The notes under the pieces are model-generated. The model ran no database searches. It was not told the DNA's origin and was given only the letters and a program-made list of their open reading frames with translations. Below are positions 12,145 through 32,000 of a DNA stretch of 32,000 bases, in pieces. This stretch comes from Candidatus Methanoperedens sp. (GTDB lineage Archaea; Halobacteriota; Methanosarcinia; Methanosarcinales; Methanoperedenaceae). The stretch is from NCBI GenBank assembly GCA_041494705.1, contig JBGQBI010000003.1:296449-328448 (forward strand), given 5' to 3'. The translations under genes and the position numbers were made by a program. Each line of letters begins with the position of its first letter. Positions within the stretch are counted from its first letter, which is position 1.

Positions 12145-12804
12145 TTATAAGCTGCATCTTCGAACAACCCCAAAGCCACGGGAAACAGATTTGCCAATAC
12201 CAAGATATTCAGGTATCATGAAGTTTATCTGAAATTCGCCCTTAAAACCAATGAGAGGAATGCCTTTTGAATAAACTTTTATGGGTGATACTTTTGTTCT
12301 TACTTTAATTTGGTTAAGAACGACGTATCCGAGAGACTTGGAAATTGAGAGAAGGTTTCCTGCAAGGATTTGATGTAAAAGTTTCACTTTGTTCTTTGGA
12401 TCGAATTTAATATAGGAATCATAATTTATCTCATTCAAAGCTATCCAGGGAACAATAAACATATACTGCATAAAGCTATCAGAACAACCAAATTCCTGGC
12501 TTTTTTCAATTATCTGACGTTCTTCAATTTTGTAAGTCATCTTACCAAGGATAATATCTTCGATATCCCAGGAAATTTCTTTTAAAATCTCAGCCCCTTC
12601 ATCAATTCCAAGTATTACCGGCGTACCTTCAATTATCTTGTATTGCACTTTCGGATATTGGTAAGAGTTCTTACCATTTTCTGCATGCTGGTGCAGAATA
12701 GGATAGTCTTTGAACCTGTTTCCGATGAAGCCCCGCAGTTTCTCAGGGCTTTCAGTTACAGGGTCTTTGGTTTTCAGTATTAGGGTTAGGGTCTGGATGT
12801 CCAT
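12145..12804 (-). CDS. cas6: Cas6 endoribonuclease, paralogue A (attached to the type III-like module)
   Basis: It has a RAMP G-rich loop (LGIGKSVSRGFGVV) and the N-terminal LRGF...LHQH...YPKVQYK pattern. It is paralogous to the ORF at 23154-23846. Confidence 0.85.
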   Translation of the reverse strand: MDIQTLTLILKTKDPVTESPEKLRGFIGNRFKDYPILHQHAENGKNSYQYPKVQYKIIEGTPVILGIDEGAEILKEISWDIEDIILGKMTYKIEERQIIEKSQEFGCSDSFMQYMFIVPWIALNEINYDSYIKFDPKNKVKLLHQILAGNLLSISKSLGYVVLNQIKVRTKVSPIKVYSKGIPLIGFKGEFQINFMIPEYLGIGKSVSRGFGVVRRCSL

Positions 12805-12868
12805 TTTTTTAGTGTTCTACACTGATTCTATATGGCGCCTAAGTCATATATAGTTAAATTATTATATT

Positions 12869-13666
12869 TCATATTTGTTTTATTTTTATATCTACCTTTC
12901 CAAATCCCTTTGACTTGTAACCACCAATGGTTTTTATGCTTGCAAAGCGGTCAATAATAAACTCCTTGATGATCGGATCTATTGACCGTGGATGTCCTGC
13001 AAGCCATGCATCTCCTCCAGTATAATCTTTAAGATTTCTCGCTTTTCCAAGTTCTCTATCTCTAACAGTGTCTTTAATTATAACTGTCAAGGTACCCATG
13101 AATTTAGCACCGTCAGGCACCAACTGGTATGGTCTATTTGTCCCCTGCTTTACGGTCTGGATTGCCCTATCAATATTTGCCGAATATAGTTCATTAACCG
13201 TTGTTTTGGCATACAAAAACGGCACTTTTACAAATCCCTCAAGTCCGTTTGCGCCAAGGAAATAGCAAACCGGACAAATTTCGTGCAATGCTTTGCATTT
13301 TCTATCGCAGGGATAGTGACAGCCATCTCCTTTGATATCCCCTCCGGTCGGCTGGAATAAGTTATAGAATCTATATAACCCATTCACCACAAGCTGATTT
13401 TCATCAGGAGAAAGCTTTGTTGAAGGTATGCAAGGCTGAAGATTTTTATCCGTCCATTTTTTTTCAGCCCTATTAAAATAGGTATCAATCAGGTATCTCT
13501 CAATCTCACAGCGGTAAGCGCCTTTGAGGGTAGAACCCGGAACAACCGCCTTATTGCCCACAAGGGCTATCGGGTTATCTATTCCCGATAAGGGACTTGC
13601 TATCCCCCCGATTCGAATAGGTTCTAAAGTTGTCAATTCAATTTCAAATTCTTTCTGTTCAATCAT
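12869..13666 (-). CDS. cas7: Cas7-group RAMP, Csm3/Cmr4-like (the only Cas7 of the type III-like module)
   Basis: Motifs present: GIDNPIAL (Asp30, at the position of the Csm3/Cmr4 catalytic Asp), VPGSTLKGAYR, CPVCYFLG, and the C-terminal G-rich loop GGYKSKGFGKV. A GGAGG Shine-Dalgarno lies 10-14 nt upstream, inside the end of the preceding gene. Confidence 0.8.
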   Translation of the reverse strand: MIEQKEFEIELTTLEPIRIGGIASPLSGIDNPIALVGNKAVVPGSTLKGAYRCEIERYLIDTYFNRAEKKWTDKNLQPCIPSTKLSPDENQLVVNGLYRFYNLFQPTGGDIKGDGCHYPCDRKCKALHEICPVCYFLGANGLEGFVKVPFLYAKTTVNELYSANIDRAIQTVKQGTNRPYQLVPDGAKFMGTLTVIIKDTVRDRELGKARNLKDYTGGDAWLAGHPRSIDPIIKEFIIDRFASIKTIGGYKSKGFGKVDIKIKQI

Positions 13667-13670
13667 TTTC

Positions 13671-28730: not shown

Positions 28731-28732
28731 TT

Positions 28733-29806
28733 TCAGCTTTTTGTTGATTTTTTGGTTTCCAGATTCTGGCTCGGCAGTTGTACGATTTGTATCTCTGCAT
28801 TTTTTAGCTTTAACTTCCCATTCTCGTTATTCCAGCCATGAACTCTTAAATCAGCGTTTTTCCAGAAATGGATTTTAGAGATTTTATCCTTACATTCATC
28901 TAACTTTTCACACAGTTTGCTTAGGTCTAATTTATATTCATCTGGTGAGCGTAATTTTGCGGTCTCATCAAAAAGCATTTCTTTACCTTGCTCGTCTATT
29001 ATCTTTACATACCTTCTTAAATCACCAAAGAAAAAATCTGAAGAATTATATTGTATTCGGATATACAATAAGGGGTGTTGCTCAAACTTACTCCTTGAGG
29101 TCGCTTCCAACGGTATCGCATGGATCATTGCATCATCAAATAACTCGATATCCTTGTTTGTAAGGTTCGTAAAATATGCTCTTTTTGCACTGATTATACC
29201 ATGAAACGCAATTAAAGAGTAATCAACACGATAATCTTTGCCCATTGCGCCAGAACCTTTTTCTGATTCTTCCTCTTCGGTTGTTTTTCCAGTTTGAAAA
29301 TGAGATGTTATACCATTTGATTCCATAGGTCCTGTTACCTTGTTTAAAGAATGACCCCAATTAAACTGGATAGGTCCTGTAAATGTAACATTTCCTTTTC
29401 TGTCTTTAAACATTACATCTGGAATAATAGCACCAAACATTCGTACATCAATAGCTTTATCCAAGAACCCATTAATTTGGTTGTCATCAATTTCTATTTT
29501 ATCCTTGTCTTTTACATTCAATATCATAGCCAAACTTTTTTTAGCGTTTACAACAGCCCCTCCACTTTTAGAGACAAATATTATTGTCGTTTCATCTTTT
29601 TTATAATCTCCCAAATAATCTCTGATATATCTTTTCAGCCGTACATCTGATACCAGGTTTATGTTCCTATGATAATCCATTCTCGGCTTATTTTCATCAT
29701 CGGGGTCCCCATTAGGATTGCACATCCGAGCATCATAAATAAACAATATTTCACTGTTATTTTTGGGTTTAACGCCACCGCTCTCTATTTCAGTTTTATC
29801 CGTCAT
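28733..29806 (-). CDS. cas7: Cas7 (type I-B, Csh2/Cst2-like)
   Basis: It carries the signature NPNGDPDDENKPRMD. The protein is 357 aa and lies between cas8b and cas5. Confidence 0.9.
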   Translation of the reverse strand: MTDKTEIESGGVKPKNNSEILFIYDARMCNPNGDPDDENKPRMDYHRNINLVSDVRLKRYIRDYLGDYKKDETTIIFVSKSGGAVVNAKKSLAMILNVKDKDKIEIDDNQINGFLDKAIDVRMFGAIIPDVMFKDRKGNVTFTGPIQFNWGHSLNKVTGPMESNGITSHFQTGKTTEEEESEKGSGAMGKDYRVDYSLIAFHGIISAKRAYFTNLTNKDIELFDDAMIHAIPLEATSRSKFEQHPLLYIRIQYNSSDFFFGDLRRYVKIIDEQGKEMLFDETAKLRSPDEYKLDLSKLCEKLDECKDKISKIHFWKNADLRVHGWNNENGKLKLKNAEIQIVQLPSQNLETKKSTKS

Positions 29807-29807
29807 T

Positions 29808-32000
29808 TTACTTTACCTCCTTATCTTTATTTGGTATCTCAATCTTCTCTAAAATTTTTCTGCCCTCGGAATATTTACCTTCCTGTCCAAGCTCATTTGC
29901 CTCTTTAAATATTGCCTCCTCTTTCTCTATATTTTTACCATCTTCTTTTGCTTTTTCGATATACACAGATATATTTTTCAACTTTTCAAAATATTTATCT
30001 TTACTTCTCTTTCTCACTAAATAGTTTGAGAATGCAAAGCCGGACAGAATATAAAATAAGTTCTCCTGATTGGAAAGTTTCCATTGCGTTTTATTACGAT
30101 CCATCAAAGTCATGTGAGCTGAGTAGATATCTTTGTTAAATTGCCATTTATCATACTGCCTCAATTTTTCAACAACTTGACCTGATAACCATCCTAACTT
30201 TTCCAGCCCCATCCCTTGAAAGTTAATCTTATTCAAAATAGGCATCTTTTTATGCCCTGCATAACTTTGAGCGCTTCCTATCTCTCCTATAAGATAACCA
30301 AGTACAAACAAAGATTTCTTACGATCGTCATTGTATATCTCGATACCCTTCCAATAGTCCAAAATCTCCTTCGGAAGTAGCTCCTCTACTTCTATACCAA
30401 TCATATTGCTTGTCTCAATCATATCTATGCCTCCTAATGCATTTAATTTTTTGAAGAAGAATAATAAAAAGTTCAATTGAAGTAATTTATTTGTAAAATC
30501 TGGTTGATTCATTTTATTTTTACTATCCCAAATATTATAGCCATTTCGTTCGAATTTAATTATTCTAATCACTTCTGTAAATTGATTAATTAAAAAAGAA
30601 TACTCAACTTTATTATCTGAAAACACAGCGTCTATAATATCAAGATATCTTGAATATCCAGAATAACTGCCCCTCTCTCCTTTTTTTATGGGAATACAAC
30701 CCCAAATCCCCTCCAAATTCACTTTCAGATTTTTATTGCTATCATAATCACTATTCACCAAATTAATGATATCTTCTTCTTTTCTCCTAATAAAATCCAA
30801 TCTGATTGGTGGTACGTCTTTGATTAGCTTTAAAATCTTAAAATCGCTTTGTGCGCTGGGGCGATAAAACAAATAATTAATCACAAAATTGTTCTTTTTA
30901 ACTCCGTATTCACTGTATTTCTCTAATTCATTTTTAAATTTTTTAAGATTTCTTAAGTTAATAATGGAATTAGTAGATGCTTTAACATACTTTGAAAAAT
31001 CCTCTATGTTCACGTTATTGACCTTATAAATAAGATGTGGAATTATGTAGGCGACCATGCCAATTTGTGTTTTTAGATTATTATCAATAAAATTTTCTCC
31101 AATCATAAGATATTGATAACACTCTCTACAGATATTGTAATTCTTTGTAAATTTTCCATCAAGATTTGATGAAAAGCCGATTTTATCTCTTACATAAAAC
31201 GCAAAATCAAGATTTGTTGAATCACTCGTTGTTTCTTTATCATTCTCCCCGCATAATAAGCAAGTAGCCTTATTCTGATAAAATTGCTCAGAGTTATCAA
31301 AGAGAGAAGAGATTTTTTCATTGAAGAGTATTTTTTTATATTCATTTGTTTTACAAACAAGCTGATCATTTATCTTAATTGTATAAAGGGATATTTCGTC
31401 GGTGTTTAAATTTATTGAAGTAACTATATTTTTCTCGATAGCTGCAATCAATTCTTTAATCGATTTTTCAATCTCTTTTTTGGTATTTGCTGCAAATAGT
31501 TTAGTCTCAATTTCTTTTAAATTATCTAACTTTTGAACAGAAAATCCAAAACATTGTGGTTTAATATAAAATTTTGATATTGTTTTTTGCTTTTCAGTAT
31601 AATCCTTTTCACTAAAAAATTCACTAAGCACAGCTTCGATATCATTCTTAAGCTTTCCATCTACTCTTTCTTTTAGTAGTGGTAGAGATTTGGTTAGTAT
31701 ATTGTCTATTCCATCGCTGGTTATGTTTAATTGAGGCTTATTACCTTTAAAATTTCCAACCCACAAATATTCTTTTCCAGATTCCAAGCCACCAGCGTTT
31801 ATTTCTTCAAAATCAATTTCAATTTTTTTATTGTTTGTATTGAAGTTAAGGATAAGGGCATGTTGCTTGAATGGTTTATCTTTATCTTTTTTATTTGGCT
31901 TTGTCTCTTGTAGTTTCTGACAAATACCATCAAGAAAAGTCTCTGGAGTTAAATTACCTTCAACTGCATACTCTCCGATTCTCTTTATCGCCTCAATCAC
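29808..32000 (-). CDS. cas8b: Cas8b large subunit (type I-B); the start is at or beyond the window edge
   Basis: The ORF is 730 aa long and begins with GTG at the last window base. The N-terminus, [10 protein letters not shown], and the internal Cys pairs CLLCGEN...CRECYQY are typical of the Cas8b/TM1802 family. It is the first gene of the cas8-cas7-cas5-cas3 block. Confidence 0.8.

Follow-up and report, generated by a model that had tools for sequence, protein, structure and literature searches.

A single CRISPR array and adaptation module alongside three effector modules, one of them type III-F, and three Cas6b paralogues in a “Ca. Methanoperedens” genome

The DNA stretch analyzed here (the window, 32,000 nt in full) comprises positions C3:296449-328448 of a 2.06-Mb, six-contig “Candidatus Methanoperedens” assembly that is 99.5% complete. 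Its part between positions 12145 and 32000 carries a CRISPR array and associated cas genes, with all open reading frames (ORFs) on the - strand (Table 1). A first-pass annotation of this DNA had given the gene order as cas8b-cas7-cas5-cas3-(toxin-antitoxin)-cas6B-cas1-cas2-cas4-leader-array-cas10-like-cas5-like-cas7-cas6A, all on the - strand, and the analysis confirmed that order. The type I-B set is complete and includes Cas8b, Cas7 (Csh2), Cas5h, Cas3 with HD and helicase domains, Cas6b, and Cas1-Cas2-Cas4, all of which passed the NCBIfam/Pfam cut-offs. The genes beyond the array encode a type III-F effector, and a second type I-B module is located on contig C2. In total, the genome contains one array, one adaptation module, three effector modules, and three Cas6b paralogues, designated Cas6A, Cas6B, and Cas6C. 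The first-pass annotation had counted two effectors and two Cas6 proteins; two systems do flank the one array, but the count for the whole genome is three of each.

The array consists of 57 copies of a 37-nt repeat (ATTCAAGAGGCACATCCACTAAAACAAGGATTGAAAC on the - strand), 55 of which are identical, and 56 spacers of 34–42 nt, all unique. The only two variant repeats are neighbors in the middle of the array, at 19204-19240 (two changes) and 19275-19311 (one change), and both end repeats are perfect. On the - strand, the 3' end of the repeat reads ATTGAAAC, which is the usual 8-nt 5' tag of Cas6-made CRISPR RNAs (crRNAs) and fits transcription of the array from that strand. The 108 nt separating the cas4 stop codon from the first repeat include a TTTATAAA box and are conserved in four genus genomes, whereas the flank away from cas4 is not conserved and, in one relative, follows a degenerate last repeat. 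Therefore, the leader was assigned to the cas4 side, with transcription directed towards cas10f, which agrees with the - strand transcription proposed earlier. The same repeat family occurs in 43 of the 49 genus genomes. No self-targets were found among the spacers, the three newest spacers had no exact match in viral contigs, and the short matches of the spacers to 48 genus genomes were all repeats, with no protospacer among them.

Searches of the whole 2.06-Mb genome with the repeat (exact and 3-mismatch), by k-mer periodicity (k = 12 and k = 9), and by a two-copy scan revealed no second array. Thus, the earlier statement that there is one array and one repeat family is true of the window as well as of the entire assembly. 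The cas1 gene is present in a single copy, cas1-cas2-cas4 is the sole adaptation module, and the only match to the RAMP family PF03787 in the genome is Cas7f. No other source of crRNAs or spacers for the effectors is present in the genome. A degenerate solitary repeat near cas6A or the C2 module was not detected in this genome at up to 11 mismatches. In genomes G052 and G018, a solitary repeat in the same orientation was observed downstream of cas6A (L012:5186-5222 and L104:1682-1718, about 0.1 kb and 1.65 kb away, respectively); the III-F module is bracketed by repeats in both, as if it had been inserted in or beside an array.

Table 1. Features of the CRISPR-Cas locus, with positions in the window.
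Feature	Position	Strand	Matches and remarks
cas8b, 730 aa	29808-32000	-	NCBIfam TIGR02556 1e-59; TIGR02591 Csh1 5e-53; profile fully covered
cas7 (Csh2, type I-B)	28733-29806	-	TIGR02590 1e-62, passes cut-off
cas5 (Cas5h, type I-B)	27903-28730	-	TIGR02592 2e-32, passes cut-off
cas3, HD + helicase, 911 aa, extra C-terminal region	25161-27896	-	TIGR01596 HD 2e-19; TIGR01587 helicase 1e-39
Short relic resembling the cas6B 5' end, directly past cas3	25107-25150	-	36/47 nt identical to cas6B start
MntA	24472-24921	-	type VII toxin-antitoxin pair with HepT
HepT	24044-24475	-	type VII toxin-antitoxin pair with MntA
cas6B, Cas6b paralogue of the adaptation/array cassette	23154-23858	-	Pfam Cas6b_N 8e-33; Cas6b_C 6e-43
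cas1	21990-22958	-	TIGR00287 4e-95
cas2	21682-22023	-	TIGR01573 2e-13
cas4	21086-21685	-	TIGR00372 3e-43
Leader	20978-21085	-	TTTATAAA box
CRISPR array	16873-20977	-	57 repeats, 56 spacers
cas10f, 673 aa	14687-16708	-	PADLOC Cas10a/Cas10f 5e-96, residues 4-670
cas5f-cas11f fusion, 339 aa	13671-14690	-	PADLOC Cas5_IIIf 7e-41 (3-238); Cas11f 2e-16 (253-336)
cas7f, 265 aa	12869-13666	-	PADLOC Cas7_IIIf 4e-59
cas6A, Cas6b paralogue travelling with the III-F module	12145-12804	-	Pfam Cas6b_N 1e-31; Cas6b_C 9e-36

The module on the far side of the array had been labelled III-like. PADLOC matches, alignment, and the fold match allowed us to refine the assignment to type III-F. When 16 family members were aligned, no variation was seen in the HD motifs of Cas10f, namely H11-D12 (in HDIGK), H41, H76, and D107, or in a four-cysteine zinc finger (C391, C394, C415, and C418). 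The GGDD-type motif [GSA]GD[DE] is absent from the window Cas10f and from 14 of its 15 relatives, and the lone exception lies outside Palm2. The AlphaFold model of Cas10f (predicted local distance difference test score, pLDDT, of 85.8) gave Csm1/Cas10 chains as the top Foldseek matches over the full length, with an E value of 5e-11. The remainder of the effector is formed by only one Csm3-like Cas7, together with Cas5 and Cas11, whose fusion is also found in L011, L012, and L014. Residue D30 of Cas7f, within GIDNP, aligns with the Asp of GGIDNP in Thermococcus onnurineus Csm3, which we take to be the RNA-cleaving D36; this alignment hints at RNA cleavage by Cas7f.

Two other identities of the module were considered and rejected. 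Type IV-C did not fit, as the type IV Cas7 profile matched over 26 residues at 3.5e-5, compared with 4e-59 for Cas7_IIIf, no type IV large-subunit match was obtained, and the catalytic Asp is kept in Cas7. For type I-D, PADLOC returned no Cas10d, Cas7d, or Cas5d matches among the window proteins. Members of the Cas10f family are uncommon (67 clusters among 5.8 billion proteins), the named matches being mostly archaeal, and III-F was found in four of the 49 genus genomes. In one of these, G022, the cas10f orthologue (G022:C27:19478-21460 = L011:1814-3796) has an in-frame TAG and may be a pseudogene or the product of a sequencing error. The Cas7f homologues form two subfamilies, one with Asp/Glu kept (GIDNP; the window and L011-L018) and one with Lys (TEKKAP; L013, L019-L026, and L030-L043). 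The window-type subfamily includes several autonomous loci with their own cas1-cas2-cas4 and arrays. In several loci of the Lys subfamily, e.g., L031, L033, L034, and L038, a Cas3-like helicase gene is located directly upstream of cas10f, an arrangement that recalls type I-D. Type III-F has been described as possessing an HD nuclease, with no cyclase and no ancillary effectors (PMC11229360), and, according to a 2021 review, no cas6 homologue had been described for it (PMC8616872). To this picture, the locus adds two minor points, a dedicated Cas6b and the fusion of Cas5 with Cas11.

The second type I-B module (L009:12471-19802 = G000 contig C2, ~58.4-65.8 kb) is headed by cas6C, followed by a weak cas8 candidate, a DevR/Cst2-type cas7 (471 aa), cas5, and cas3, and has neither cas1, cas2, or cas4 nor an array. 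Housekeeping genes enclose it, those for aconitase X and HemD at one end and those for UbiD and UbiX at the opposite end. In G016 and G001, the same Cas6C-headed, TNEAP-like I-B module is located directly upstream of cas6B-cas1-cas2-cas4. A Cas6C-type module is present in three of the 49 genus genomes.

Cas6A and Cas6B, both of the Cas6b family, share 43% identity (93/216), and Cas6C is 28–30% identical to each of them, with a PADLOC Cas6b match at 8e-31. The LRGF, LHQH, and YP.VQYK motifs and the identical YLGIGKSVSRGFG stretch reported in the first-pass annotation are indeed common to Cas6A and Cas6B. Residues H38, H40, and Y48 of Cas6A align with H38, H40, and Y47 of the M. maripaludis Cas6b (4z7k), which are presumably its catalytic residues. 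No variation was seen in the His-x-His, the Tyr, or the glycine-rich loop among the three paralogues and three relatives. Pairwise ratios of nonsynonymous to synonymous substitution rates (dN/dS) among orthologues ranged from 0.07 to 0.13 in each of the three Cas6 clades, which indicates purifying selection. The annotation had allowed for a catalytically dead Cas6, but with these residues and ratios none of the three looks dead or decaying.

A maximum likelihood tree of 27 Cas6b sequences, rooted at the midpoint only and with four long bacterial rows unresolved, contained three starred clades that track gene context. Clade B (10 rows, support 99/100) comprises genes followed within ~1 kb by cas1 or cas2-cas4 in 10 of 10 cases. 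Members of clade A (seven rows, support 99/97) are tied to III-F or I-D, and clade C includes three rows (support 100/100). Clade A has two sister lineages. One is the sole Cas6b-family gene found beside a Hydrothermarchaeum III-F locus that is autonomous, having cas1-cas2-cas4 and an array of its own; the second, in G012, has cas1-cas2-cas4 and an array nearby, and no III-F or I-D gene was detected there. The view that each effector has its own Cas6 was only half correct. Cas6A accompanies III-F; Cas6B belongs with the cas1-cas2-cas4-array cassette and not with the I-B effector genes.

Comparison of the window with the other genomes of the genus demonstrated that the cas6B-cas1-cas2-cas4-leader-array cassette encodes proteins that are 78–99% identical across the genus, and that the adjoining effectors are of HMARI-type I-B, of two TNEAP-like I-B variants, or of I-D. 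The layout in G018 is the same as in the window, cas3-MntA-HepT-cas6B-cas1-cas2-cas4-array(63)-cas10f-cas5/11f-cas7f-cas6A; array-cas10f...cas6A was recovered from G052 and cas10f...cas6A from G022. Contig C30 of G022 (L088:4408-10637) additionally carries a type I-D module (cas3d, cas10d, cas7d, and cas5d) that ends with a clade-A Cas6b 62% identical to Cas6A; a cas6B fragment, MntA-HepT, and the cas6B-cas1-cas2-cas4 cassette follow. The locus is a mosaic in its guanine-plus-cytosine (GC) fraction, which is about 0.47 in the flanking host genes, 0.43–0.49 in cas6B-cas1, 0.31–0.40 in the III-F module, 0.34 in the toxin-antitoxin pair, and 0.26–0.35 in the I-B effector genes (0.26–0.40 for the effector modules together). 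Separate origins of the two modules, which the first-pass annotation had offered as one explanation, are well supported by the Cas6 tree, the GC mosaic, and the swapping of modules around the conserved cassette. The exchange of effectors around a single adaptation module and array, as well as the use of distant arrays by effectors, has been published (PMC13676074).

The AT-rich composition of the modules relative to the host could also mean that the III-F or C2 module was acquired recently and is neither expressed nor loaded, so that the array serves only I-B. The low frequency of III-F and of the Cas6C-type module in the genus, together with the in-frame TAG in G022, is consistent with such a silent state. 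On the other hand, every ORF is intact in the present genome, none of the HD, zinc-finger, and Cas7 Asp motifs has been lost, the dN/dS values of the Cas6 genes are ~0.1, and synteny with the array is preserved in G018 and G052. We therefore regard silent modules as improbable.

The next point concerns the use of one repeat by several Cas6 enzymes. The 17-nt 3' half of the repeat, AAAACAAGGATTGAAAC, is identical in the arrays of the Cas6b lineages compared, and the 5' half varies. This comparison took in clade B, the two clade-A sisters (Hydrothermarchaeum and G012), a GoM-Arc1 hybrid locus, and the WOR-3 and Atribacteria loci; for clade C loci, no neighboring array was recovered. In addition, the repeat has practically no secondary structure (-2.3 kcal/mol, z-score -0.2). 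Since the 3' half is identical and the repeat unstructured, cross-cleavage of one repeat by several Cas6b is likely, and all three paralogues probably cut the same repeat; for Cas6C, this is suggested by its position adjoining the cas6B cassette in G016 and G001. Cross-cleaving Cas6 paralogues are known from Methanosarcina mazei, Thermus thermophilus, and others, according to the passages of PMC12102369 that cite this work. At least two Cas6b matches were found in six of the 49 genus genomes. Two Cas6 for one repeat are thus not unexpected, contrary to the annotation.

Several enzymes cutting one repeat may nevertheless be followed by separate use of the products. Each Cas6b might stay on the crRNA it cut and hand it only to its own effector, from Cas6B to I-B, from Cas6A to III-F, and from Cas6C to the second I-B, so that the pool would be split among three complexes. 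An adjacent, own-clade Cas6b is kept by each accessory effector module in several genomes, all Cas6 are under purifying selection, and the paralogues differ at 57–72% of positions with the catalytic and RNA-loop motifs retained, all of which is in keeping with such routing. The Cas6 of T. thermophilus serves as an anchor for the crRNA and is in contact with the I-B Cas5, and the type III-associated Cas6 competes with it (PMC12102369). However, GoM-Arc1, Atribacteria, Desulfobacterales, and WOR-3 have hybrid loci, in which I-B operons contain embedded III-F-like genes, with one Cas6b-family gene for both effectors, Cas6B is tied to the adaptation cassette beside at least four effector types, and Cas6 is usually no stable part of type III-like complexes (PMC13676074). 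Effector-specific routing is therefore possible but doubtful. A related reading, in which the Cas6b would act as address labels, cutting the same repeat but delivering the crRNA only to their own effector (I-B, second I-B, or III-F), is unlikely; if it were true, a dedicated Cas6 would be what enables a newly arriving effector module to be coupled to a resident cassette.

In the hybrid loci, one Cas6b-family gene was detected within 10 kb by tblastn queries, which would miss other Cas6 families, and these loci belong to the second Cas7f subfamily, with Lys in place of the catalytic Asp. As they carry a single Cas6b-family gene, III-F probably needs no private Cas6 in general. A further explanation is that Cas6A, and perhaps Cas6C, mainly tunes I-B by competing with Cas6B for the repeat and does not load III-F. 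The common 3' half of the repeat makes such competition possible, and the type III-associated Cas6 of T. thermophilus HB27 lowers I-B interference (PMC12102369). Against this, the III-F operon always ends with Cas6A, genus genomes that have neither III-F nor I-D lack Cas6A, and its sister lineage in Hydrothermarchaeum is the only Cas6b-family gene found beside an autonomous III-F locus. Thus, a primarily regulatory function is very unlikely.

We consider it fairly likely that the locus is composite, with one array and one adaptation module serving three effectors and with the extra Cas6b being mainly a legacy of separate origins. The array would be transcribed on the - strand from the cas4-proximal leader, and one or more of the Cas6b would cut each 37-nt repeat, yielding crRNAs with a AUUGAAAC 5' tag. 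Upstream, an AT-rich I-B Cascade/Cas3 module appears to have been split from the cassette by insertion of MntA-HepT; its Cascade would retain the full crRNA and recruit Cas3. The AT-rich III-F module directly downstream of the array, probably acquired horizontally, would take the same crRNAs, bind transcripts through the Cas7f backbone, and cut them with Cas7f D30. Target binding may switch on the HD nuclease of Cas10f, and no cyclic-oligoadenylate (cOA) signal would be possible. The I-B module on C2 would draw in trans on the same crRNA pool. Cas6A, associated with III-F, and Cas6C, associated with the second I-B module, would be retained from the separate origins of these modules, with all three Cas6b kept intact by selection. 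The III-F module may also be a second line against I-B escapers, as the first-pass annotation proposed; this idea is taken over from work on Marinomonas cited in a passage of PMC11229360.

Several points weigh against this interpretation. That the III-F and C2 modules use the array was concluded because no alternative source was found in the genome, i.e., from the absence of alternatives. The long retention of Cas6A beside cas7f under purifying selection would also fit a specific role. No biochemical study of III-F was found in the literature searched, and IV-C, the closest characterized relative of III-F, recognizes double-stranded DNA and not RNA (PMC13676074). Finally, since the searches yielded no protospacer, the targets lend no support to activity or to a protospacer-adjacent motif (PAM).

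A number of further features were observed in and around the locus. The start codon of cas8b is a GTG at 32000, preceded by a GGAGG site, and cas6B orthologues begin at the ATG at 23846. The MntA-HepT pair between cas3 and cas6B was identified by matches to NF047752 (4e-14) and NF047751 (1e-33) and occupies the equivalent position in G018, G008, G022, and G001. Its flanks (24921-25165 and 23847-23960) hold short duplicates of the cas6B start region, among them the ~44-nt cas6B relic after cas3. This relic, assigned to repeat family D4, encodes MNLNLTLAS, compared with MNLKTFTLTLAS in cas6B, and similar cas6B fragments were found in L088 and L098. The C-terminal extension of Cas3 (residues ~703-867, window 25300-25790) has at least five paralogous copies on contigs C2, C5, and C6, with 32–46% identity; HEAT repeats had been guessed from these paralogous matches, but Pfam gave no support and no domain was found. 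Directly after cas6A, on the - strand, lies a gene for a TldD/PmbA-like peptidase (10718-12049) with host-like GC, and + strand genes occupy window positions 1-10707. The ends of C1, C3, C4, and C5 carry a common repeated element with the palindrome ACGTATGGCAAAGCCATACGT, which is also present inside C1 (C1:56900-57000). The ends of C3 and C6 overlap, so that the end of C6 comes after cas8b.

The genome represents an unusually clean natural case, in which one array and one adaptation module are combined with three effectors, three Cas6b, and a rarely seen subtype. As a minimal natural case of crRNA allocation, it could help to decide between routing, competition, and simple redundancy of Cas6 paralogues. 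Few CRISPR subtypes have been studied less than type III-F, and the compact effector described here, which has a Cas6b of its own, a long adjacent array, and intact HD and Cas7 motifs, is a convenient candidate for reconstitution. The pattern across the genus, with a fixed cas6B-cas1-cas2-cas4-array cassette and swapped AT-rich effector modules, is a clear case of modular CRISPR evolution.

Precedents have been published for array sharing, for effector swapping, and for co-resident Cas6b paralogues, and the locus is not a new kind of system. The III-F subtype, reportedly defined in the classification of Makarova et al. from 2020, resembles the module in the window in having a Cas10 that has HD but lacks a cyclase motif, only one Csm3-like Cas7 with Cas5 and Cas11, and no adjoining cOA-dependent ancillary effector. 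The differences are that Cas5 and Cas11 are fused here, that a dedicated Cas6b closes the operon, and that the module abuts a 57-repeat array. M. mazei Go1 (I-B and III-C), a related archaeon of the order Methanosarcinales that is said to have one array per system, has the I-B order cas8b-cas7-cas5-cas3-cas6b-cas1-cas2-cas4 in common with the window. Two Cas6b, one per system, with cross-cleavage were reported for it (Nickel et al., 2019, in the passages of PMC12102369 and PMC7465815 that cite the study). In the present genome, by contrast, one array is available to three modules, and the type III partner is III-F, not III-C.

In Pyrococcus furiosus, one Cas6 reportedly serves all complexes, whereas here each accessory module brings its own Cas6 paralogue. 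Sharing of the P. furiosus or Marinomonas type, as far as it is covered where PMC13676074 and PMC11229360 cite it, is similar in that several effectors depend on one repeat type and one adaptation module. A general survey of III-F is given in PMC11229360. T. thermophilus HB27, with Cas6-1 and Cas6-2, likewise has co-resident I-B and type III systems; cross-cleavage occurs between its Cas6 paralogues, and the one associated with type III influences how the I-B Cascade is assembled (PMC12102369). It differs in being a bacterium with several arrays and repeat types and with III-A/B effectors that use cyclase signaling. The IV-C system of T. onnurineus (PMC13676074) is comparable in its reduced Cas10-HD effector with Cas11, Cas7, Cas5, and a neighboring Cas6; it uses crRNAs from the arrays of co-resident systems, and its authors proposed a III-F ancestry. 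The III-F module of “Ca. Methanoperedens” differs from it in gene order and in a Cas7 that keeps the putative RNA-cleaving Asp.

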